Positions 1-8,626 of a stretch of DNA of 8,626 nt are shown piece after piece. The position numbers and the translations under genes were made by a program. The notes beneath the pieces are model-generated. The model ran no database searches, was not told where the DNA came from, and saw only the letters and a program-made list of their open reading frames with translations. Origin of the DNA: a virus (Duplodnaviria; Heunggongvirae; Uroviricota; Caudoviricetes); IMG/VR virus record IMGVR_UViG_2698536618_000012, positions 1-8,626 of that record; one strand, given 5' to 3'. Within the stretch, counting starts at the first letter, position 1, and every line of letters begins with the position of its first letter.

Positions 1-303
1 GAGGATGACCCTCGTAATCAGGTTAATTTTCTTTATGAGCCATCGGAAAGACCATATTGTCATCACGCCTCTGTTCGGGTTGACGAAAAAGAGCGTCAGG
101 TCCGCTGTAAAATCTGCGGTGCAGTTGTGGAGCCATTTGACTGGATGCTCTCTGTGGCGAAAAGAGAAACCAGACTGGCAGATGATGTAAGGCACTTGCG
201 CCAGGAGGAGCGGGAAAGGCGAAAAAATATAGAAAAGCTAATTCAGATTGAGCGTAACGCGAAAGCGCGGATACGCAGGGCGACAAAATCCAGAACTGAA
301 TAA
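1..303 (+). CDS. 3' part of a hypothetical phage protein (5' end outside window); Cys/His zinc-ribbon-like motif followed by a charged, coiled-coil-like tail
   Basis: Frame 1 is open from base 1 to TAA at 301-303 (100 codons). Translation ...YCHHASVRVDEKERQVRCKICGAVVEPFDW...RHLRQEEREGRKNIEKLIQIERNAKARIRRA is protein-like. The overlapping track ORFs 5..190(+) and 23..355(-) look less protein-like. No family recognised. Confidence 0.45.
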   Translation, partial: EDDPRNQVNFLYEPSERPYCHHASVRVDEKERQVRCKICGAVVEPFDWMLSVAKRETRLADDVRHLRQEERERRKNIEKLIQIERNAKARIRRATKSRTE

Positions 304-396
304 TTAAATTTAGCTCTGTTAAAAATTTAATCCTTAACCGGAGGGATTTCTGCACCCTCAGAACATCAGGAGGCCGCCCGAAAGGGCGGTAGTTAA

Positions 397-579
397 ATGC
401 GAAAGTTTAAAATAATTATTGAAACGGGAATAGCCGGTGGAGATTTCGAGGATGAATTCGAAGTGGATGATGATGCGACGCCTGATGAAATACATGACGA
501 AGCAAAAGATATTTTCTTTAACTACTGCAATTACTCATATCACGAAATAAAAGACGAAGAGGAAGAGCAAAATGGCTGA
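397..579 (+). CDS. hypothetical small acidic protein (60 aa)
   Basis: ORF from the track; ATG at 397 follows an in-frame stop. Its stop overlaps the start of the next ORF (ATG 572 / TGA 577-579). Very acidic composition typical of small nin-region phage ORFs. Confidence 0.45.
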   Translation: MRKFKIIIETGIAGGDFEDEFEVDDDATPDEIHDEAKDIFFNYCNYSYHEIKDEEEEQNG

Positions 580-748
580 TTTTGGTTCAACTAAATACAA
601 CGTCAGTTTTGAAGCATGGCATGAACTGTTAATGGACTATGCAGAGTTACGTGGTGGCAGTGCTGCTGATGCTGAAGCATGGCGTGATGATTATGAAGCA
701 GGAAAAACTCCGGTCGAAGCATATTGTGATGAGTGGGGCGATGAATGA
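572..748 (+). CDS. hypothetical small acidic protein (58 aa), translationally coupled on both sides
   Basis: Own translation: MADFGSTKYNVSFEAWHELLMDYAELRGGSAADAEAWRDDYEAGKTPVEAYCDEWGDE. Its stop TGA 746-748 overlaps ATG 745 of the next ORF (ATGA). Absent from the track only because it is under 60 aa. Confidence 0.4.
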   Translation: MADFGSTKYNVSFEAWHELLMDYAELRGGSAADAEAWRDDYEAGKTPVEAYCDEWGDE

Positions 749-1260
749 GCGAGATTAATTATCAGGAAGGGCATGAAACGGCAGGGCAGGCAAAACCAGT
801 TGCATGGCGATATCGCTACGTGAAAAAAGACGTTACAGACTTTCAGGGGAAGCCGTGGGCTGGTGACTGGAAATATGTACCGACAAAAGAGGATTGTAAC
901 GACAGGCCGAACTATGAAATTCAGGCCTTATTCATCGGCCCGCCAGTCCCGGTGACATCAGAAGGACTGGTTAAAGCCGTGCGCTTTTATGAACAGGTAA
1001 AGCGTGAGAATCCGCCAGTCGAAACAGGAGCATGGAAGGATGCTGTTGACTGGGTGCTCAGAGAGGCCTGCTGCGCTGCCATTCTGGGTAAAGCCGACAA
1101 TCCACCAGCATCCGGCAATCAGGTTAGCGAATTAACAATGTGGGTTAAACGACTGGTCAGTCAACTGAAAAAAGCGCAGCCGGACTGCAAATTACCGGAG
1201 AAGGCGATGGATTACCTGAAACGAAATGGACTGATAAGCGTGGAGGATGTTTTACGATGA
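745..1260 (+). CDS. hypothetical phage protein (171 aa)
   Basis: Long ORF with ATGA start/stop coupling to the upstream ORF; no recognisable family motif. Confidence 0.55.
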   Translation: MSEINYQEGHETAGQAKPVAWRYRYVKKDVTDFQGKPWAGDWKYVPTKEDCNDRPNYEIQALFIGPPVPVTSEGLVKAVRFYEQVKRENPPVETGAWKDAVDWVLREACCAAILGKADNPPASGNQVSELTMWVKRLVSQLKKAQPDCKLPEKAMDYLKRNGLISVEDVLR

Positions 1261-1380
1261 ATATTTAGACTAAAGAATTTGTAACGCTATGTAAGTGATT
1301 TTTTCTGGTTTAGATATTTATATGTCCGGCCAAATTGAGGTGTGTTTAAATGTTATTGCACATTGATTGTAGGGGGAATA

Positions 1381-1560
1381 ATGAAAAACGCATTGCAGTT
1401 TTTGTTTGTTGCGTTCTGGTTGTTCGCATCATGTATGCCCATCATCTTCACAGCAAGGTATATGGAAAAAATTGATGTTTTGATATTAATGTTTGGACAT
1501 ATAAATGCCCTTTTTTTAGGGGTGTTCATGGCGGTCATGTGCATTGAATACTGGCGGTAA
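1381..1560 (+). CDS. hypothetical small membrane protein (59 aa) in an AT-rich segment
   Basis: ATG at 1381 preceded by SD-like GGGGG (1372-1376). Translation MKNALQFLFVAFWLFASCMPIIFTARYMEKIDVLILMFGHINALFLGVFMAVMCIEYWR has two hydrophobic segments. AT-richness also allows spurious ORFs here. Confidence 0.35.
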   Translation: MKNALQFLFVAFWLFASCMPIIFTARYMEKIDVLILMFGHINALFLGVFMAVMCIEYWR

Positions 1561-1614
1561 ATACAGCGAACGCCATTGGTTTAGTTGGATATTTACTGTG
1601 CCGGACAAAAACGG

Positions 1615-1643
1615 TTTGCGGGGAAATCTTAGTTAAGTAGAAT
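1615..1643 (+). promoter_or_regulatory. candidate sigma70 promoter for the hok mRNA (-35 TTTGCG, 17-nt spacer, -10 TAGAAT 1638-1643)
   Basis: The -10 hexamer is a good match and the -35 is weak. The predicted start near 1650 puts the 9-nt box TGCGGGTGC (1647-1655) at the 5' end of the transcript, and this box is complementary to 2031-2039 near the 3' end. Confidence 0.3.
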
Positions 1644-1818
1644 AACTGCGGGTGCTTGAGGCTATCTGTCTCAGGCATGAACACCAAAAGGCAGATAGAG
1701 AAAAGCCCCAGTTAACATTACGCGTCCTGCAAGACGCTTAACATTAATCTGAGGCCATATCTATGCGACACATAGAGATTAGCCTCTTACGGACCGAAAG
1801 GTCAAGGAGAAGCAGGCT

Positions 1819-1974
1819 ATGAAGCAGCAAAAGGCGATGTTAATCGCCCTGATCGTCATCTGTTTAACCGTCATAGTGACGGCACTGGTAACGAGGAAAG
1901 ACCTCTGCGAGGTACGAATCCGAACCGGCCAGACGGAGGTCGCTGTCTTCACAGCTTACGAACCTGAGGAGTAA
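1819..1974 (+). CDS. hokD: Hok/Gef-family type I toxin (51 aa)
   Basis: Own translation MKQQKAMLIALIVICLTVIVTALVTRKDLCEVRIRTGQTEVAVFTAYEPEE matches the Hok/Gef family signature (single TM helix then TRKDLCEV..R..GQTEVAVF.AYE); to my recollection it matches HokD (RelF) of the E. coli Qin prophage. Confidence 0.88.
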   Translation: MKQQKAMLIALIVICLTVIVTALVTRKDLCEVRIRTGQTEVAVFTAYEPEE

Positions 1975-1981
1975 GAGACCC

Positions 1982-2003
1982 GGCGAGGGAGAAATCCCTC
2001 GCC
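1982..2003 (+). other. perfect 9-bp stem with GAAA tetraloop immediately 3' of hok (GGCGAGGGA-gaaa-TCCCTCGCC)
   Basis: Read directly from the sequence. It sits where hok mRNAs carry their 3' fold-back (fbi) structures. Confidence 0.6.
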
Positions 2004-2042
2004 ACCTCTGATGTGGCAGGCATTCTCAACGCACCCGCACTT

Positions 2043-2070
2043 AACCCGCTTCGGCGGGTTTTTGTTTTTA
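2043..2070 (+). terminator. intrinsic terminator of the hok transcript
   Basis: AACCCGC-ttcg-GCGGGTT: 7-bp stem with UUCG loop, followed by TTTTTGTTTTTATTTT. Confidence 0.75.
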
Positions 2071-2082
2071 TTTTCAACGCAT

Positions 2083-2112
2083 TTGAAGTTCTGGACGGTG
2101 CCGGAATAGAAT
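2083..2112 (+). promoter_or_regulatory. candidate sigma70 promoter upstream of the rem-like gene (-35 TTGAAG 2083-2088, 18-nt spacer, -10 TAGAAT 2107-2112)
   Basis: Hexamers read by eye; lies just downstream of the hok terminator. Confidence 0.3.
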
Positions 2113-2190
2113 CAAAAATACTTAAGTAGCGCGCAGGGATAAGAGGGATGGTCCCTTAAAGGGGAGAGCTAATTATCCGGAAGGATTCTG

Positions 2191-2442
2191 ATGATGAACA
2201 TCGAAGAACTGCGTAAAATTTTTTGTGAAGATGGCCTCTATGCTGTGTGCGTTGAAAATGGAAATATTGTTAGTCATTACCGCATTGTGTGTTTGCAAAA
2301 AAATGGGGCTGCGTTAATTAATTTTGTGGATGCCCGAGTGACGGACGGATTTATCTTGCGCGACGGTGAGTTTGTCACTTCATTACAGGTATTGAAAGAG
2401 ATCGGAATAAAAGCTGGCTTTTCTGCTTTTTCAGAAGAATAA
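2191..2442 (+). CDS. rem: small hypothetical prophage protein (83 aa), Rem-like by size and position
   Basis: ORF with SD-like GGAAGGA upstream. Symbol is assigned by recalled synteny only (hokD - rem - ydfU in K-12 Qin, rem being 83 aa), not by sequence comparison. Confidence 0.5.
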   Translation: MMNIEELRKIFCEDGLYAVCVENGNIVSHYRIVCLQKNGAALINFVDARVTDGFILRDGEFVTSLQVLKEIGIKAGFSAFSEE

Positions 2443-2508
2443 ACTCATCTACAATCTTGCGCGGGGCTGAACTCCCGCTGAGTAACACCGTGCCACCGGA
2501 GAAAACCG

Positions 2509-2787
2509 ATGGCACGCAACGCAAAATATTACAAACATGATAATTCGACCGTTCTTGCCCACACGCACGAGCGGTATTCTCACGCATTTAAGTCAGACTG
2601 GTACCAGCATCCCCCATGCACTGAAGAACAGGCCGAATGGCTCATTCAGTGTTACCGCAGGCGCGGATGCGAGGTTAAAAAAGCCCTTAGCCTCGACTAC
2701 CGTCACTGGATAATCTCCGTCAGGCTTCCTTACTCCGAACACCCACCGCGTCCGTCCCGCACATTCCAGCAACGCATCTGGAGGTAA
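2509..2787 (+). CDS. hypothetical Cys/His-rich small protein (92 aa), possibly metal-binding
   Basis: GGAG 9 nt upstream of ATG 2509; its stop abuts the next gene's SD and start. Contains H..H...C..C..C. May correspond to the DUF1364-type small proteins of nin regions, but that is unverified. Confidence 0.5.
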   Translation: MARNAKYYKHDNSTVLAHTHERYSHAFKSDWYQHPPCTEEQAEWLIQCYRRRGCEVKKALSLDYRHWIISVRLPYSEHPPRPSRTFQQRIWR

Positions 2788-2788
2788 C

Positions 2789-3838
2789 GTGCGGGTATTA
2801 CTTCGACCTGTTCTGGTACCGGAACTCGGGCTGGTGATCGTTAAGCCGGGCCGTGAATCCATGCCGGTATTCCACAATACCCGGGTACTGGTGGAGCCGG
2901 AACCGAAAAGCATGCGTAATCTGCCGTCCGGGGTCGTTCCTGCCGTTCGCCAGCCGCTGGCGGAGGATAAATCATTACTGCCATTTTTCAGCGACGAACG
3001 AGTGATTCGTGCTGCTGGTGGCGCTGGCGCATTGTCTGACTGGTTACTGCGCCATGTTAAATCCTGCCAGTGGCCACACGGCGATTATCACCACAGTGAA
3101 ACCGTCATTCACCGTTATGGTACCGGCGCAATGGTGTTGTGCTGGCACTGCGACAACCAGTTGCGTGATCAGACCTCCGAATCACTTGAGCAACTTGCTC
3201 ACCGAAACTTGTCAGCATGGATGATTGACGTCATTCGTCACGCAATGAATGGCACACAGGAGCGTGAATTATCGCTGGCTGAATTATCCTGGTGGGCGGC
3301 CTGCAATCAGGTGGTGGATGCACTACCTGAGGCAGTAGCGCGTCGTTCGCTGGGATTACCAGCGGAAAAAATCCGCTCCGTATACCGTGAGAGTGACATC
3401 GTACCGGGAGAACAGACAGCCATCAGCATACTGAAGCAGCGCACAAAAAATATTGCGCTGCCACTTCACGTCCACCAGCAACAAAATCCACCACAGAAAA
3501 AAACGGTTGTCAGTATCGCCGTTGATCCGGAGTCTCCTGAATCGTTCATGAGGCGACCTAAACGTTGCCGTTGGGTTAATGAGAAATACACGCGCTGGGT
3601 AAAGACACAGCCGTGTGCGTGTTGTGGTAAGCCTGCTGACGATCCGCATCACCTGATTGGTCATGGTCAGGGGGGAATGGGGACAAAGGCCCACGATATT
3701 TTCACGCTACCGTTGTGCCGGGAGCACCACAACGAACTTCATGCAGACCCGCTGGAGTTTGAGAAAAAGTACGGCTCTCAGATTGAGTTAATTTTTCGTT
3801 TTCTTGATCACGCCTTTGCAACTGGCGTGCTTGGGTAA
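2789..3838 (+). CDS. ydfU: DUF968/YdfU-like prophage protein (349 aa) with a C-terminal HNH-like Cys/His motif (putative nuclease)
   Basis: GTG start 2789 with GGAGG 4 nt upstream. C-terminal PCACCGKPADDPHHLIGHGQGG...LPLCREHHNELH is HNH/zinc-finger-like; a second Cys/His cluster is CQWPHGDYHH...CWHCDNQ. Length and position upstream of rusA fit the YdfU/DUF968 family as I recall it. Confidence 0.75.
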   Translation: MRVLLRPVLVPELGLVIVKPGRESMPVFHNTRVLVEPEPKSMRNLPSGVVPAVRQPLAEDKSLLPFFSDERVIRAAGGAGALSDWLLRHVKSCQWPHGDYHHSETVIHRYGTGAMVLCWHCDNQLRDQTSESLEQLAHRNLSAWMIDVIRHAMNGTQERELSLAELSWWAACNQVVDALPEAVARRSLGLPAEKIRSVYRESDIVPGEQTAISILKQRTKNIALPLHVHQQQNPPQKKTVVSIAVDPESPESFMRRPKRCRWVNEKYTRWVKTQPCACCGKPADDPHHLIGHGQGGMGTKAHDIFTLPLCREHHNELHADPLEFEKKYGSQIELIFRFLDHAFATGVLG

Positions 3839-3850
3839 AAGAGGTGACTG

Positions 3851-4210
3851 ATGCTCATAGATTTGGTTTTACCTTACCCGCCGACGGTGAACACTTACTG
3901 GCGACGCCGTGGCAGCACATATTTTATCTCGGAGGAGGGAAAGCGTTATCGCCGGGCTGTGGCGCTTATTGTTCGCCAGCAGCGGCTGAAATTAAGCCTG
4001 TCCGGAAGGCTGGCGATAAAGGTGATTGCAGAGCCACCGGATAAGCGTCGTCGCGACCTGGACAACATTCTGAAAGCACCGCTGGATGCGCTGACGCATG
4101 CGGGAGTGCTCATTGATGATGAGCAGTTTGATGAAATCAATATTGTACGTGGTCAGCCAGTATCTGGTGGACGGCTGGGTGTGAAGATTTACAAAATTGA
4201 GAGTGAGTGA
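3851..4210 (+). CDS. rusA: RusA-family Holliday junction resolvase (crossover junction endodeoxyribonuclease)
   Basis: 119 aa with SD AGAGG 7 nt upstream. Translation carries the RusA hallmarks (N-terminal LPYPPTVNTYWRRRG, catalytic-region RRRDLDN, C-terminal GG.L...I) and aligns by eye with E. coli RusA. Confidence 0.9.
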   Translation: MLIDLVLPYPPTVNTYWRRRGSTYFISEEGKRYRRAVALIVRQQRLKLSLSGRLAIKVIAEPPDKRRRDLDNILKAPLDALTHAGVLIDDEQFDEINIVRGQPVSGGRLGVKIYKIESE

Positions 4211-4218
4211 GCGTAAAT

Positions 4219-4749
4219 ATGATATATCCGGAAATTACAGGCAAAAGCGGCGAACATTTACGCCTGAACACGCTGGAAGCAGTCTGGATCCAGGGGAAAT
4301 TACGGATGTGGGGGCGGTGGTCGTATATCGGTGGGGGTAAATCCGGAAATATGTTTAACCGGTTACTGGTTTCGAAAAAGCTGACGAAAACAGCAGTTAA
4401 TGAGGTTTTACGCAGAATGAAGAAATCCGGGCTGGAAAAACCGGAACTTGAGGCATTTTTTCGGGATATGACAAGAGGAAAGCAGAAGAGCTGGTTGTCA
4501 CATTGTACAGACACAGAGGCGTTGATTATTGATCGCGTTATCAGTGAGGTGCTTGGGGAATATCCCGGGCTAATCAATATTCTCCGGCAAAGGTACGAAG
4601 GACGGGGAATGAGTAAGAGAAAAATGGCAGAATGTTTAAATCGTACTCACCCGGAATGGTGTTTCAGCACATGTGAGAAACGTATTGCAGGTTGGTTAGC
4701 CGTGGCTGAACACATGCTTTATGTACCTATGCACGATTCATTTCGATAA
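4219..4749 (+). CDS. putative late-gene antiterminator (Q-like) protein, 176 aa; functional assignment is positional
   Basis: ORF immediately downstream of rusA (the canonical Q position in lambdoid phages) and followed by a hairpin-rich leader and strong intrinsic terminator. ATG 4219 is preferred over GTG 4207, which overlaps the rusA stop. No Q-family motif could be verified by eye. Confidence 0.55.
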   Translation: MIYPEITGKSGEHLRLNTLEAVWIQGKLRMWGRWSYIGGGKSGNMFNRLLVSKKLTKTAVNEVLRRMKKSGLEKPELEAFFRDMTRGKQKSWLSHCTDTEALIIDRVISEVLGEYPGLINILRQRYEGRGMSKRKMAECLNRTHPEWCFSTCEKRIAGWLAVAEHMLYVPMHDSFR

Positions 4750-4845
4750 AAAAAGCTTGCTTTTTTACGCAGAAACAGCTTGAATTCCTGTAAGCTTCGC
4801 AAAGCTGTATCGCGAGGCGAAATGCAAGTTTTTTCGCACAAGGAA

Positions 4846-4867
4846 GCCACCGGAAGGTGGTTTTTTT
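4846..4867 (+). terminator. strong intrinsic terminator after the Q-like gene (tR'-like)
   Basis: GCCACC-ggaa-GGTGG(T) stem followed by TTTTTTT. Preceded by another hairpin, GCGAAA-tgcaagttt-TTTCGC (4817-4837). Confidence 0.75.
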
Positions 4868-4990
4868 GTGTCCGTAATATACAGCAGCGCAATAAATTCG
4901 CTGGTGGTTATTAATACCGTTCTTTCAGCTTGCTGGCTTTTTCGACAAGAGTTATTGGTGTGTCACGTTAACCGGAAAAGGGAAAAAGGC

Positions 4991-5188
4991 ATGCTAAAAC
5001 AGCAGGATATGACCGAAACCGCCAGAGTGGTGTTTAATGAATTAAGCGTCACCGAACCGGCGACCGTCGAGGAAATTGCGCAGAACACTTATCTTTCACG
5101 CGAACGCTGCCAGTTAATACTGACCCAGCTTGTTATGGCGGGTCTGGCAGATTATCAGTTCGGTTGTTACAGACGCCTTCCTCAGTGA
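4991..5188 (+). CDS. small winged-helix DNA-binding protein (65 aa), PapI/FaeA-like or controller-like regulator
   Basis: Internal ATG of track ORF 4868..5188 with SD AAGGGAAAAAGG. TVEEIAQNTYLSRERCQLILTQLVMAGLADYQFGCYRRL has a helix-turn-helix-wing pattern. The GTG-extended N-terminus (4868-4990) looks non-coding. Confidence 0.5.
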   Translation: MLKQQDMTETARVVFNELSVTEPATVEEIAQNTYLSRERCQLILTQLVMAGLADYQFGCYRRLPQ

Positions 5189-5198
5189 AGGCTTTTTT
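5175..5198 (+). terminator. intrinsic terminator overlapping the stop codon of the wHTH gene
   Basis: GCCTTC-ctcagt-GAAGGC: 6-bp stem followed by TTTTTTATTT. Confidence 0.6.
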
Positions 5199-5338
5199 AT
5201 TTGTGGTAATGGGCGGCTGGTGGGTGTTAGCGGCACCTGCCAGCCATCTGCTCATGCGTTGGGGTCACAAGCAAACCTCAGGCCCATCTGCTTTGCGCAA
5301 AAGCGGTATGAGCCTATCAGAGAAGTGCTTATTGATCT

Positions 5339-6418
5339 ATGGCTAATACTGTAAAAATATCCAGTTGTGAGTTAATCAACGCTGATTGCCTGGAATTTAT
5401 CCAGACCTTACCGGAAAACTCTGTCGATCTGATAGTCACAGACCCGCCATACTTTAAAGTGAAGCCCGAGGGCTGGGATAACCAGTGGAAGGGCGACGAT
5501 GATTACCTGAAGTGGCTGGACCAGTGTCTGGCGCAGTTCTGGCGGGTGCTGAAACCTGCCGGAAGTCTTTACCTGTTCTGTGGCCATCGCCTGGCATCTG
5601 ATATCGAAATCATGATGCGTGAACGCTTCAGTGTGCTGAACCATATTATCTGGGCGAAGCCGTCCGGACGCTGGAACGGATGCAACAAGGAAAGCCTGCG
5701 GGCGTATTTCCCCGCCACAGAGCGCATTCTGTTCGCGGAACATTATCAGGGGCCGTATCGTCCGAAAGATGCCGGGTATGCGGCGAAGGGCAGTGCACTG
5801 AAACAGCATGTGATGGCCCCGCTGATTTCTTACTTTCGTGATGCGCGTGCTGCTCTGGGGATAACGGCAAAACAGATTGCAGATGCCACAGGAAAGAAAA
5901 ACATGGTGTCGCACTGGTTCAGTGCCAGTCAGTGGCAGCTACCGAACGAAAGCGATTATCTGAAATTACAGTCGCTGTTTGCCCGGGTGGCAGAAGAGAA
6001 ACATCAGCGGGGTGAACTGGAAAAGCCACATCACCAACTGGTCAGCACATACAGTGAGCTGAACCGGCAAAACCGGCAATATGCCAGCCTGCTGGAGGAG
6101 TACAAATCTTTGCGGCGTTATTTTTCTGTATCGGCTGCTGTTCCGTATACGGATGTCTGGATGTATAAGCCTGTACAGTATTATCCGGGCAAACACCCCT
6201 GTGAAAAACCGGCAGATATGTTGCGTCAGATAATAGAGGCCAGCAGTCGTCCGGGTGATTTGGTTGCCGACTTTTTTATGGGGTCAGGTTCCACGATAAA
6301 AGCCGCGCTTTCGCTTGGTCGTCGGGCAATAGGCGTTGAGCTTGAGGCTGAACGGTTTGAGCAGACGGTGAGCGAGATAAGAGAAATTCTGACGTGTAAA
6401 GCTGTTGAAAATATATAA
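5339..6418 (+). CDS. orphan beta-class DNA methyltransferase (N6_N4_Mtase family; DPPY motif suggests N6-adenine)
   Basis: 359 aa. Catalytic motif IV DLIVTDPPYF lies near the N-terminus and the AdoMet-binding motif I DFFMGSGST near the C-terminus, with a roughly 200-aa target-recognition region between. This is the beta-class order, and overall architecture resembles YhdJ-like adenine methyltransferases. No restriction endonuclease gene is evident nearby. Confidence 0.9.
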   Translation: MANTVKISSCELINADCLEFIQTLPENSVDLIVTDPPYFKVKPEGWDNQWKGDDDYLKWLDQCLAQFWRVLKPAGSLYLFCGHRLASDIEIMMRERFSVLNHIIWAKPSGRWNGCNKESLRAYFPATERILFAEHYQGPYRPKDAGYAAKGSALKQHVMAPLISYFRDARAALGITAKQIADATGKKNMVSHWFSASQWQLPNESDYLKLQSLFARVAEEKHQRGELEKPHHQLVSTYSELNRQNRQYASLLEEYKSLRRYFSVSAAVPYTDVWMYKPVQYYPGKHPCEKPADMLRQIIEASSRPGDLVADFFMGSGSTIKAALSLGRRAIGVELEAERFEQTVSEIREILTCKAVENI

Positions 6419-6480
6419 GTATGGGGTGTAAAGTTGTTCTCGAAAATAATCATGTTTTCTCACGAATCAGAGGGGGGATA

Positions 6481-6741
6481 ATGATTGAGGTTCGATGGAC
6501 AAGGACAGCCCTGAAGCAGTTACTTCGTGTGGATACGCGGTATCGGCAGGCGATAAAGGATAAGGTCGGTGCGCTAAAGGATTTTCCTCTGGTAGCCATG
6601 GATTTTAAAAAGCTATCAGGGAGTGACAATCGATTCCGTTTGAGGGTCGGCGTGTACAGGGTTATTTTTGATGTTGAGGATGGTGATCCTGTTGTCCTGG
6701 ATATTAAGGAAATTAAGCGCAGAAGCACAACCACATACTAA
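6481..6741 (+). CDS. type II toxin, RelE/ParE superfamily (toxin-first, HigB-like gene order)
   Basis: ATG 6481 with strong SD GAGGGGGG 5 nt upstream. The 86-aa product has the RelE/ParE pattern (..RFRLRVGVYRVIFDVEDGDPVVLDIKEIKRR...Y). The track ORF start at 6421 is probably an over-extension. Confidence 0.8.
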   Translation: MIEVRWTRTALKQLLRVDTRYRQAIKDKVGALKDFPLVAMDFKKLSGSDNRFRLRVGVYRVIFDVEDGDPVVLDIKEIKRRSTTTY

Positions 6742-6801
6742 GGGAGGCTGGCGGGAGACCGCCAGTTTGCTGAACGACATTCAATCGCGAAAGGCAATGA
6801 T

Positions 6802-7176
6802 ATGAAAAACAGTGTCCAGTTTATTACTGATAATGCCGGTGTTAGAACCGGGGTCATTATGTCAGTTGCTGAATATGAACGGCTGTTAAGTCTGGCAGAT
6901 CCTGATGATGATTTTGAAAGCATCCAGTATGAAGCCGGAGAGCATGACAATGAAACAATACCTCATGAAGTAGTATCCATCATGATTGATGATGATGTGT
7001 CATTGTTGGCAGCATGGCGGATTTACAGGCGAATGACTCAACAGGAAGTGGCGGAGCGCCTGGGGGTTAAACAGTCAGCCGTATCTCAGTTTGAGAGAGC
7101 AGGAGCTCCGCGAAAATCAACACTGGAAAAACTGGCTGAGATTTACAACTGCCGACCAAATCAGTTGGCTGATTAA
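6802..7176 (+). CDS. antitoxin with N-terminal Phd/YefM-like segment and C-terminal XRE-type HTH (124 aa)
   Basis: AAGG 7 nt upstream of ATG. N-terminus NAGVRTGVIMSVAEYERLLSL resembles the YefM/Phd motif; C-terminus LLAAWRIYRRMTQQEVAERLGVKQSAVSQFERAG...LEKLAEIY is a classic HTH_XRE. Lies directly downstream of the toxin. Confidence 0.8.
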   Translation: MKNSVQFITDNAGVRTGVIMSVAEYERLLSLADPDDDFESIQYEAGEHDNETIPHEVVSIMIDDDVSLLAAWRIYRRMTQQEVAERLGVKQSAVSQFERAGAPRKSTLEKLAEIYNCRPNQLAD

Positions 7177-7321
7177 TCCTGAGTTTGGTTTTCGTAGCGA
7201 TTGCATTTTTCTTATCTGCTTGCCGTTGTAGGTAGCGTGTATTTGCATGTTGTTTTGTAGTTAACCTTATGGTTGGCTGAATTTTGTTCATCAATAAAAA
7301 ATATCCCTCTCTGATCTTTAA

Positions 7322-7346
7322 GGTTCGCTTTGGCGGACCTTTTTTT
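7322..7346 (+). terminator. intrinsic terminator downstream of the toxin-antitoxin pair
   Basis: GGTTCGC-tttg-GCGGACC: 7-bp stem including one G-U pair, followed by TTTTTTT. Confidence 0.7.
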
Positions 7347-7482
7347 ATTTCCGCGCCACGCCCGGCGTACATCAAAAACCACAGAGCCTTTCAGGGGTGA
7401 GCTTACGGGATGGTCAGTGTGACTTTCTCTGTGGGCTGGTCACCCCCGGGCGCAGGCTCACCCACTAAAAGGAAAAGTCACG

Positions 7483-7914
7483 ATGTTTGGTATTTTCAAA
7501 AAGAAAACCCGCAGAGCAGCAACTGAAATTAAAAAGTTTGAGAAACGCGATCTGGCACAGGCGGTTATTAATGCTGCCTACCTGGTGGCCTATGCAGATG
7601 GTGAATGTGAGACTTCAGAGAAAGTGAAGATCGAACAGGTATTACGTAACCAGCCAGCATTGTCCGCATTTACGTCAGAAATTAATGCCATCAGTGCCAC
7701 GATCACAGGTCAGCTTGACACCAATTTTAAAATTGGTCGTCGTGCAGCGTTGCGTGAAATTGAAGATGTGAAACACGATACGCGTGAAGCGGAAGATGTG
7801 CTGGATGTGGCGGTGGCCATTGCTGAAGCAGATGGTGAAATTGAGCCGGAAGAGCGTAAGGTTCTGGAAGAGATTGCTGGTGTTCTTGGCCTGCGACTGG
7901 AGAACCACCTGTGA
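7483..7914 (+). CDS. TerB-domain protein (tellurite-resistance TerB-like, 143 aa)
   Basis: SD AAGGA 8 nt upstream. Two copies of the TerB-type helical motif (hydrophobic-x-A-x-A-D-G-x-acidic...E-K/R): AAYLVAYADGECETSEKVKIEQVL and DVAVAIAEADGEIEPEERKVLEEIAGVLGL. Confidence 0.7.
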   Translation: MFGIFKKKTRRAATEIKKFEKRDLAQAVINAAYLVAYADGECETSEKVKIEQVLRNQPALSAFTSEINAISATITGQLDTNFKIGRRAALREIEDVKHDTREAEDVLDVAVAIAEADGEIEPEERKVLEEIAGVLGLRLENHL

Positions 7915-8078
7915 CGGTAAAACTGCGTCTGGCCGCTGTGGCACTCCTGCTGTTTCTGGTGGTGATGGTGGATTTCACCAGCAGGATCATGTCGGTGCTG
8001 GCGGATGGAGTGCTGGTCTGCGGCATTGTGGTATTGCTGTGGCCGGTGATAAAAAGAAACAGCCTGCATAATGCTTGA
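7911..8078 (+). CDS. small two-helix membrane peptide (55 aa), translationally coupled to the TerB-like gene
   Basis: GTG 7911 overlaps the TerB stop (GTGA); GGAGAA sits 6 nt upstream. Own translation VTVKLRLAAVALLLFLVVMVDFTSRIMSVLADGVLVCGIVVLLWPVIKRNSLHNA shows two hydrophobic stretches. Not in the track (under 60 aa); an alternative start at ATG 7965 would give 37 aa. Confidence 0.45.
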   Translation: MTVKLRLAAVALLLFLVVMVDFTSRIMSVLADGVLVCGIVVLLWPVIKRNSLHNA

Positions 8079-8243
8079 TTTTTTTGTTTGCTGTTTATTA
8101 AAAACACTTCTGCATGGTGAATCCCCCTGTGCGGTGGGGCAATCAGCAAGAAGGAATATGGGGTAATCGCGGATTCAGGTGCTGATACTGAATTCACCGG
8201 GAGGCACCCGGCACCATGCAAGAAAAAGAATGTGCATGCAAAC

Positions 8244-8271
8244 ATGCCCCTCTCCGGAGGGGCATTTTTTA
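8244..8271 (+). terminator. strong intrinsic terminator (9-bp stem ATGCCCCTC-tccg-GAGGGGCAT followed by TTTTTT)
   Basis: Read directly from the sequence. An adjacent hairpin GCCCGAA-tggg-TTCGGGC (8284-8301), preceded by AAAAAA, would act as a terminator for the opposite strand, so the pair may be bidirectional. Confidence 0.7.
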
Positions 8272-8363
8272 TGGGTAAAAAATGCCCGAATGGGTTCGGG
8301 CAATAGCATGAGATACTGATATTGTTGTGTTGTTATCGTGTGGATTTTAACCAGGGTTTATCA

Positions 8364-8389
8364 GGCTGCGCAACTGCGTGGCCTTTTTT
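8364..8389 (+). terminator. candidate intrinsic terminator (8-bp stem with two G-U pairs, loop AACT, followed by TTTTTT)
   Basis: GGCTGCGC-aact-GCGTGGCC followed by TTTTTTC; a second terminator only about 95 nt after the previous one. Confidence 0.5.
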
Positions 8390-8396
8390 CATTTCT

Positions 8397-8443
8397 TGGG
8401 CTGTAGTCCCCGTGTGTCATTCAGGCTTCCGGACTACAGCCCA
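8397..8443. repeat. 13-bp perfect inverted repeat with 21-nt spacer (TGGGCTGTAGTCC ... GGACTACAGCCCA)
   Basis: Read directly from the sequence; lies about 45 nt upstream of the ATG at 8486. Confidence 0.7.
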
Positions 8444-8485
8444 CTCCATATCTGATTTAATACACTATCCCGGCCGGGAGGAATA

Positions 8486-8626
8486 ATGACATTTAAACAT
8501 TATGATGTTGTCAGGGCGGCGTCGCCGTCAGACCTTGCGGAAAAGCTGACACACAAACTGAAAGAGGGCTGGCAGCCGTTTGGTAGTCCGGTGGCCATAA
8601 CCCCTTATACCCTGATGCAGGCGATT
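8486..8626 (+). CDS. 5' part of a hypothetical phage protein (continues beyond the window)
   Basis: ATG 8486 with SD GGGAGG 4 nt upstream; open to the window end. Translation MTFKHYDVVRAASPSDLAEKLTHKLKEGWQPFGSPVAITPYTLMQAI. May be a DUF1737-type small protein found near lysis cassettes, but this is unverified. Confidence 0.6.
   Translation, partial: MTFKHYDVVRAASPSDLAEKLTHKLKEGWQPFGSPVAITPYTLMQAI

Follow-up and report, generated by a model that had tools for sequence, protein, structure and literature searches.

The hok/sok systems closest to the locus described here are known from prophages, plasmids and chromosomes. The hokW-sokW locus of the Sakai prophage Sp5 and of Stx2 phages (933W type) is a type I toxin-antitoxin pair, and in Sp5 northern blots showed both of its RNAs (Takada et al. 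2021, PMC8621323). When the sokW promoter was mutated, the antitoxin activity was abolished and the toxicity unmasked, and after mitomycin C the sokW RNA vanishes and HokW appears in a RecA-dependent manner; deletion of the locus halves the phage yield (PMC8621323). The hok/sok (parB) locus of plasmid R1 is plasmid-borne and has a proven role in post-segregational killing. The hokC/gef-sokC locus and other Escherichia hok loci are chromosomal and lie outside prophages. In E. coli K-12, hokD (relF) belongs to the relBEF operon of the cryptic prophage Qin. Phage Rac is annotated with mok/hok. Here we analyse a hok locus within 8,626 nucleotides (nt) of viral DNA (Caudoviricetes; IMG/VR record IMGVR_UViG_2698536618_000012, positions 1 to 8,626), called the window below. 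This 8.6-kb stretch comes from a lambdoid prophage of E. coli and represents its early-right/Q region; the main open reading frames (ORFs) are all on the plus strand. The locus is very probably a complete, self-contained hok/sok cassette that uses the canonical mechanism, as judged by homology.

According to that mechanism, as transferred from hok/sok of plasmid R1, a weak promoter would give a stable hok mRNA that starts at G1650 and is about 419 nt long. In the full-length RNA, pairing between the translational activator element (tac) and the fold-back inhibitory element (fbi) would leave the anti-Shine-Dalgarno box (ucb) free to mask the Shine-Dalgarno (SD) sequence of the leader ORF mok, and a separate hairpin would mask the SD of hok. 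RNA locked in this way would be neither translated nor bound by Sok. Slow trimming from the 3' end would remove fbi, upon which the 5' end would refold and the mok SD would open. The short and unstable Sok RNA (minus strand, about 1769 to 1700) would then pair across the mok start and cause block and decay. Once Sok is lost, the 19-codon mok would be translated, the hairpin over the hok SD would be melted, and translation would stop on AUGA, where Hok, a membrane-damaging peptide, would be started. The elements of the locus are as follows.

1615-1643, plus strand: putative weak hok promoter, assigned by position (-35 TTTGCG 1615-1620, 17-nt spacer, -10 TAGAAT 1638-1643).
1650-2068, plus strand: full-length hok mRNA, about 419 nt, both ends predicted (position 1 of Rfam RF01794 falls on 1650; terminator at 2043-2070).
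1650-1660, plus strand: tac, GGGUGCUUGAG, pairs with fbi at a probability of 0.97-1.0.
1700-1769, minus strand: predicted Sok-like antisense RNA, about 65-70 nt, its ends placed by promoter geometry and a U-run.
1705-1711, plus strand: ucb, GCCCCAG, pairs with CUGAGGC 1749-1755 in the minimum free energy (MFE) fold.
1751-1754, plus strand: mok SD, GAGG, masked by ucb in the full-length fold.
1760-1776, plus strand: predicted Sok-target hairpin with the mok AUG (stem UCUAUG/CAUAGA, loop CGACA 1766-1770), from the local fold.
1763-1822, plus strand: mok-like leader ORF, 19 codons from ATG 1763, its UGA stop overlapping the hok AUG (AUGA).
1776-1805, minus strand: putative Sok promoter, assigned by homology (-35 TTGACC 1805-1800, 18 nt, -10 TAATCT 1781-1776).
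1782-1812, plus strand: hairpin masking the hok SD (CCUCU/AGGAG, apical stem GACC/GGUC) in the MFE fold.
1804-1809, plus strand: hok SD, AAGGAG, overlapping the Sok -35 box on the opposite strand.
1819-1974, plus strand: hok toxin gene (HokD, 51 amino acids).
1982-2003, plus strand: hairpin in the 3' untranslated region, 9 bp with a GAAA loop (repeat finder; helix 16 of the fold).
2025-2036, plus strand: fbi, CUCAA-C-GCACCC, assigned by fold, covariation and fixed position.
2043-2070, plus strand: intrinsic terminator, AACCCGC-UUCG-GCGGGUU plus U-run (terminator prediction).

A preliminary description of this DNA, made from its letters, had named the toxin ORF at 1819-1974, a 19-codon ORF from ATG 1763 whose stop TGA 1820-1822 overlaps the hok ATG 1819-1821, the GAAA hairpin and the UUCG terminator, and minus-strand TTGACC/TAATCT boxes as a candidate antisense promoter. 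All of these were found where it had placed them, and the boxes are homologous to the Sok promoter of related loci.

The family membership of the locus is firm. The ORF matched Pfam HOK_GEF (PF01848; E 1.2e-23, 82.9 bits against a cut-off of 22) and PHROG 251 'MokW-like host killing' (E 2.8e-33). Positions 1560-2110 are 100% identical to a prophage in E. coli AR_0013, in which the hok ORF alone is annotated, as hokD. The same RefSeq accession (WP_000813254.1) covers the hokD of this identical locus and the hokD of a K-12-like locus, and a recent survey used the HokD protein as a control of known toxicity (bioRxiv 10.1101/2025.08.07.668861). For the leader, the preliminary description had proposed an alignment with the Rfam hok and sok families. 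RF01794, which carries the name "sok" but models the sense strand of the hok leader, was matched end to end (model 1-157; window 1650-1821, plus strand) with 106.7 bits against a gathering score of 59 (E 4e-24). The same model gave 87.2 bits for an R1-type IncFII plasmid locus and 111.1 bits for phage Rac, and its search of the K-12-like relBE-hokD locus gave no match. The R1-type locus stands in for R1 itself, which blastn against plasmids did not reach; it was fetched with the Hok protein sequence and was confirmed by 100% tblastn matches annotated as Hok family toxin.

For the comparative analysis, species-representative genomes were scanned for hok loci, 53 loci were returned, and 36 distinct sequences complete from leader to fbi were aligned. 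They come from Escherichia, Shigella, Kluyvera, Pseudocitrobacter, Photorhabdus, Pantoea, Erwinia and Kalamiella. In this alignment the mok SD GAGG is invariant and CAAGGAG, at the hok SD, is near-invariant. The sequence TTACGAA near the end of hok is invariant in 36/36 loci. As a side observation, the codon UAC of Hok Tyr47 and the next G (1957-1960, plus strand) form the UACG motif of adenosine-to-inosine editing by TadA.

Among the described systems, hokW-sokW is likewise located in a lambdoid prophage and likewise encodes a 51-amino-acid Hok. Its Hok is 92% identical to that of the window, its DNA is about 91% identical over 440 nt, and it shares tac, ucb, the mok SD, the hok-SD hairpin, fbi and the place of the Sok promoter. 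The two loci differ in the mok start (-57 and in frame in the hokW type, giving a 70-codon fusion; -56 with 19 codons in the window), in the target loop (CUGA, a YUNR motif, in hokW; CGACA in the window) and in the Sok promoter (TTGCCT/17/TAACCT in hokW; TTGACC/18/TAATCT in the window). Moreover, the Stx2-phage copy of hokW lacks the UUCG terminator hairpin of the window, and hokW-sokW lies elsewhere in the phage genome and has no Q-region genes close to it.

The R1 locus belongs to the same Rfam family and shows the same order of elements, namely 5' GGNNGCUUGAGGCU, ucb AGCCCC, mok SD GAGGC, AGCCUCUUAC and CAAGGAGAAG. It likewise has 19 mok codons before hok and shares the UACGAA motif near the hok end. 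On the other hand, the first hairpin of the R1 leader carries an insertion, the extended arm of the Sok-terminator hairpin of the window is missing from that leader, and the R1 tac/fbi pair is GGCGCUU/AAGCGCC instead of GGGUGC/GCACCC. As for the toxins, HokW, the 92%-identical relative of the window toxin, is reported to be 44% identical to R1 Hok (PMC8621323). The hokC-type and other chromosomal Escherichia loci have the same architecture with the identical tac-fbi pair GGGUGC/GCACCC, and the Hok of the chromosomal hokC type is about 80-82% identical to that of the window. Their leader is about 20 nt shorter, without the inner insert of the Sok hairpin, and the Sok -10 box differs.

K-12 hokD shares with the window the hok SD, the ORF, the 3' hairpin, fbi and the terminator, and its downstream genes also match (rem, DUF968/ydfU and Q), but unlike in the window relB-relE is fused 71 nt upstream of hokD. 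The gene order in Qin of K-12 MG1655 is relB-relE-hokD-rem-ydfU-Q. When the window was aligned to it, as the preliminary description had suggested, the match covered only positions from 1805 onward; within 1805-2110 the two are identical but for 3 substitutions, and upstream there is relE sequence instead. The homology breaks off between positions 1804 and 1805, a point between the Sok -35 box and the hok SD. Because relE replaces the upstream sequence, K-12 has no hok promoter, tac, ucb, mok start, Sok target or Sok -10 box, and its fbi is retained without a partner. This agrees with a published description of K-12 hokD as rearranged and without canonical components (PMC12214031). At the window locus the relBEF operon form, with relB-relE directly upstream and a hokD lacking its own leader, was not found. 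No RelB or RelE domain was detected in the window ORFs upstream of hok and none is annotated there in the 100%-identical genome, where hypothetical phage genes lie upstream. The earlier view that relBE is absent upstream was therefore correct, and its suggestion that the hok locus may be regulated autonomously, unlike the relBE-dependent form of K-12, is supported by the K-12 comparison, the Rfam match and the domain search.

A relB-relE-hok fusion was also observed in Kluyvera sp. CHPC 1.2972 (L028:2289-3216), where 936 bp align at 89.9% identity; the Hok encoded there reaches just 70% identity and its hok SD has degenerated (ACAGATGTTAGCCATG). Judged from these sequences, the fusion is not peculiar to E. 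coli K-12.

We now consider the RNA elements, starting with the 5'-3' lock. The preliminary description had reported a perfect 9-nt complement between the predicted 5' end and a site just before the terminator. The sequences TGCGGGTGC (1647-1655) and GCACCCGCA (2031-2039) are indeed exactly complementary, the 9-mer is found only at these two sites of the window (0.07 expected), and tac-fbi pairing between them is predicted, but the first three of these positions are probably outside the RNA. The hok transcript probably starts at G1650, as the homologous loci indicate, so 1647-1649 would not be transcribed. The Rfam model starts 7 nt downstream of the end of the -10 box TAGAAT, and the same geometry is found in the hokC-type and R1-type loci. 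In the promoter region TTAAGTAGAAT is kept in phage Rac and in the hokW-type locus, and the flanks further upstream diverge. The fold of 1650-2068, a check that the preliminary description had also proposed, joins the 5' end to the 3' box. The conserved lock consists of 6 + 5 bp, in which GGGUGC 1650-1655 pairs with GCACCC 2031-2036 and UUGAG 1656-1660 with CUCAA 2025-2029, with C2030 bulged between them; 11/11 pairs have a probability of at least 0.97. Relative to the hok ATG, fbi is placed at +205 to +212 in almost every relative examined. At tac position 4 the 36 relatives have U-A in 24, C-G in 10, U-G in 1 and an unpaired position in 1, which is a compensatory change across genera. The Photorhabdus-type loci form the same 11 bp without the bulge, where CTCAAGCGCCC is a perfect 11-mer complement (read by eye). 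Because these loci lack the bulged C and are shifted by one column, columns 7-12 of tac-fbi are under-counted on the alignment.

At the DNA level a repeat finder lengthens the inverted repeat to 13 nt, of which 12/13 (92%) are complementary (1643-1655 with 2031-2043), and this repeat reaches 7 nt upstream of the predicted transcription start. The pairs 1647-1649/2037-2039 and the 13-nt repeat are unlikely to be part of the RNA, as they lie 4-6 nt from the -10 box. The three pairs are not kept in the hokC-type or Kluyvera loci and are kept, with wobbles, within the hokD group. Their retention in the hokD types could mean that transcription in this subgroup may also start further upstream, or it could reflect common ancestry alone.

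The MFE fold of 1650-2068 (-167.7 kcal/mol, z = -8.1) reproduces the inactive full-length architecture of the paradigm, with both Shine-Dalgarno sequences masked. The helix between ucb and the mok SD (helix 4) carries three compensatory pairs among the relatives (A-U/G-C 26:10, G-C/A-U 15:9 and G-C/A-U 21:14). Helices 6 and 7, which form the hairpin over the hok SD, are paired in 93.9% and 84.8% across the relatives, and helix 16, the 3' GAAA hairpin, in 97.3%, with 4 pairs changed on both sides. When the structure derived from the window was placed on the 36 relatives, 88.2% of cells were paired compared with 40-46% after the partners were slid by 1-3 columns, and 35 pairs were changed on both sides compared with 9-17 in the slid controls; since the structure was taken from the window's own fold, this comparison favours it over the slid controls. 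The observed covariation score was reached by 0/500 shuffles. The tac and ucb elements are also complementary, and their pairing is encoded in the Rfam consensus structure. In the full-length RNA, a forced alternative fold with tac-ucb pairing is 20.4 kcal/mol worse. Covariation is uninformative for tac-ucb because both sides are invariant in the 36 sequences. In a nascent RNA of 51 nt, tac is predicted to pair with 1668-1678 in a 5' hairpin, which matches the expectation for the co-transcriptional metastable structure.

The mok leader was compared in 56 loci. In almost all of them a mok start with its SD is kept at -56 to -58 relative to hok, and all three frames occur: at -57 mok is in frame with hok and gives a fusion of 68-72 codons, at -58 it is read in another frame for 55-69 codons, and at -56 it has 19 codons. 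Since hok begins with AUGA, a mok at -56 always ends on the hok start, after 19 codons. This form has arisen through different indels in three groups, namely the hokD-type allele of the window, the hokC-type loci of E. ruysiae/E. whittamii, and Erwinia/Kalamiella. Compared with phage Rac, whose type has a CUUUG loop and a mok of 68 codons, the window allele is 2 nt shorter just after the mok AUG, and the mok frame is changed. In R1, mok translation is required only as far as the hok start, that is, for 19 codons (PMC9841398), and therefore the short mok keeps the required part. As far as the sequences indicate, the three-frame pattern fits the view that only translation to the hok start is selected and that the Mok sequence beyond this point is irrelevant.

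On the opposite strand, the putative Sok promoter boxes are present in the 36 relatives at the homologous position, as TTGACC or TTGCCT, 17-18 nt, and TAATCT or TAACCT. The predicted Sok RNA has a short 5' tail (with a weak 4-bp hairpin in the MFE fold) followed by a long hairpin and UUUUCUCU; its fold has -30.2 kcal/mol (z = -4.6), and the RNA would span the mok SD and AUG. A target hairpin with the mok AUG in its 5' arm is predicted in most of 37 loci, the window included, and the loop of the window is the shortest among the canonical hairpins of these loci. Of the 37 predicted target loops, 19 contain a YUNR motif, that of the R1-type locus among them; the hokC type has no such motif. The R1-type and hokW-type loci carry CUGA at this place; the MFE fold of hokW does not put CUGA in the loop.

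The complete form of the locus is widespread. Among 5426 complete E. coli genomes, the segment from the mok start to the hok start is present in about 3745 and the relE-hokD junction in 1166, so that the full-length form is the commoner one. The exact window allele occurs at an identity of at least 99% in 777 E. coli records, and copies of the cassette occur in about 80 phage records and on about 600 plasmids. In other genomes, many matches begin at window positions 1603-1631 and end at 2061-2069. They thus run from promoter to terminator, a pattern that a mobile self-contained module would be expected to give. The copies on the about 600 plasmids have 88-91% identity, and these plasmids, mostly non-mobilizable and of about 95-100 kb, may be phage-plasmids. 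On a small plasmid of Klebsiella oxytoca (NZ_CP069920.1, 9.5 kb) the cassette is 100% identical.

The cassette is flanked by hypothetical phage ORFs upstream and by rem - DUF968 - rusA - Q downstream.

Upstream of hok, plus strand: small phage ORFs (DUF7167, PHROG 660).
2191-2442, plus strand: rem, downstream of hok.
Between rem and the DUF968 gene in gene order, plus strand: a 92-amino-acid ORF.
2789-3838, plus strand: DUF968/YdfU-like protein.
3851-4210, plus strand: RusA.
4207-4749, plus strand: DUF1133 Q-type antiterminator.

Several further features of the window were recorded. Just 5' of the hok promoter, in an AT-rich stretch (1201-1600, 35-39% GC), there is a very hydrophobic ORF of 59 amino acids (1381-1560, plus strand; MKNALQFLFVAFWLF...) with a GGGGGAA ribosome-binding site; it had no Pfam or PHROG match and is unannotated in the identical RefSeq genome. 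The cargo 3' of Q includes an N6/N4 DNA methylase (E 1.2e-44) at 5339-6418 and a TerB-domain protein (E 3.2e-15) at 7483-7914, both on the plus strand. About 4.4 kb 3' of hok, a type II toxin-antitoxin-like pair is encoded toxin first (6421-6741 and 6802-7176, plus strand), where the toxin has a ParE/RelE fold (Pfam ParE_toxin, E 1.5e-7) and the second gene encodes an HTH_3 protein (E 3.9e-12). The same prophage has no relBE upstream of hok, yet it carries this other module of the RelE superfamily. Finally, two small RNA genes of Rfam families lie back to back, STnc100 at 8083-8276 (plus strand, 139.4 bits) and AgvB at 8277-8338 (minus strand, 96.5 bits). AgvB is an anti-GcvB small RNA known from prophages of enterohaemorrhagic E. 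coli, and the window copy matches the consensus perfectly.

Several results weigh against reading the locus as a working canonical cassette, in addition to the advantage that the slid-column comparison gives to the window's own fold. When the RNA ends at 2024 or 2028, folding with tac-ucb pairing costs 7.7-9.6 kcal/mol relative to the MFE, and none of the 3'-trimmed RNAs that were folded (ends 2010, 2020, 2024 and 2028) switched to the active tac-ucb fold in the MFE; ucb stays on the mok SD, and tac is in the 5' metastable-type hairpin or in residual 3' pairing. A generic scan for sigma-70 consensus promoters found that neither the hok nor the Sok promoter reaches the threshold, and both assignments therefore rest on homology. 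The target loop CGACA has no YUNR U-turn motif, which in R1 was shown to be decisive for fast Sok binding (PMC6562991). YUNR is an accessory feature rather than a universal one, and its importance is known for R1 only. Furthermore, the chromosomal hokA, hokB and hokC were tested earlier and showed no post-segregational killing, according to the summary in a recent preprint (bioRxiv 10.1101/2025.08.07.668861).

One alternative is that the cassette looks complete but is silent, a decaying relic in which the 2-nt deletion would be an inactivating lesion. Relative to the hokD-type relatives, this indel just after the mok AUG changes the mok frame, and it also leaves the 5-nt target loop without YUNR; the failure of hokA, hokB and hokC in the killing tests points the same way. 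Nevertheless, we consider decay very unlikely. All other elements are intact, the toxin has the RefSeq accession of K-12 HokD, which is reported to be toxic, and the 19 codons to the hok start, the sole part of mok needed in R1, are kept. The short mok arose independently by other indels in the E. ruysiae/E. whittamii hokC type and in Erwinia/Kalamiella, and the allele is carried at an identity of at least 99% by the 777 E. coli records. The missing YUNR was not taken as evidence of decay because the hokC-type loci also lack it in the target loop. It is also conceivable that the deletion allele, combining a 19-codon mok with a CGACA loop without the U-turn, is a functionally distinct tuning variant, but we regard this as unlikely. 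At the other extreme, the 5'-3' complementarity and the small upstream ORF could be chance features around an ordinary small gene, as short complements and short ORFs are common in any sequence. The probability of this is negligible, and it is refuted by the rarity of a 9-mer expected 0.07 times and found exactly at the two predicted sites, the covariation of tac-fbi across genera, the mok start and SD kept at -56 to -58 in almost all of the 56 loci, and the Rfam match (E 4e-24).

A different question is what the cassette does for the prophage, where its role could be retention, exclusion of other phages, or help in lysis. The last of these would make it a phage-timed lysis helper rather than an addiction module; on induction, early rightward transcription passing through hok on its own strand would collide with Sok transcription, Sok would fall, and Hok would aid phage release. 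This proposal addresses the role and does not conflict with the canonical RNA mechanism. The hok gene points the same way as the early genes around it, as far as Q, and the 500 bp upstream contain no predicted terminator, so antiterminated read-through on induction could interfere with Sok transcription. The disappearance of the sokW RNA and the RecA-dependent production of HokW after mitomycin C in Sp5, together with the halved phage yield of the deletion (PMC8621323), agree with it, and PHROGs places the toxin family in the class of morons and host takeover. However, the read-through and collision step is itself conjectural, and the locus has its own promoter-like boxes and terminator and moves as a unit, about 600 plasmids included, which fits an autonomous module. 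We hold the lysis role to be possible but doubtful.

Overall, there is little new in the cassette itself, which is very common and already described; the full-length hokD cassette is the usual form, as in hokW-sokW of Sp5 (PMC8621323) and the mok/hok of phage Rac. Only the three-frame behaviour of mok and the loop-shortened allele are mildly new points. The three-frame pattern gives independent comparative support for the experimental view that Mok beyond the hok start is irrelevant. If the short form does alter the coupling or the rate of Sok binding, prophage cassettes would have different firing thresholds. At such loci RefSeq annotates only the hokD ORF and neither the mok leader nor the Sok RNA nor the regulatory RNA elements, and genome users may therefore wrongly assume K-12-like dependence on relBE. 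The analysis confirms that the textbook hokD of K-12 is a derived, truncated form, and that the ancestral hokD is a normal hok/sok cassette of lambdoid prophages, common across E. coli.

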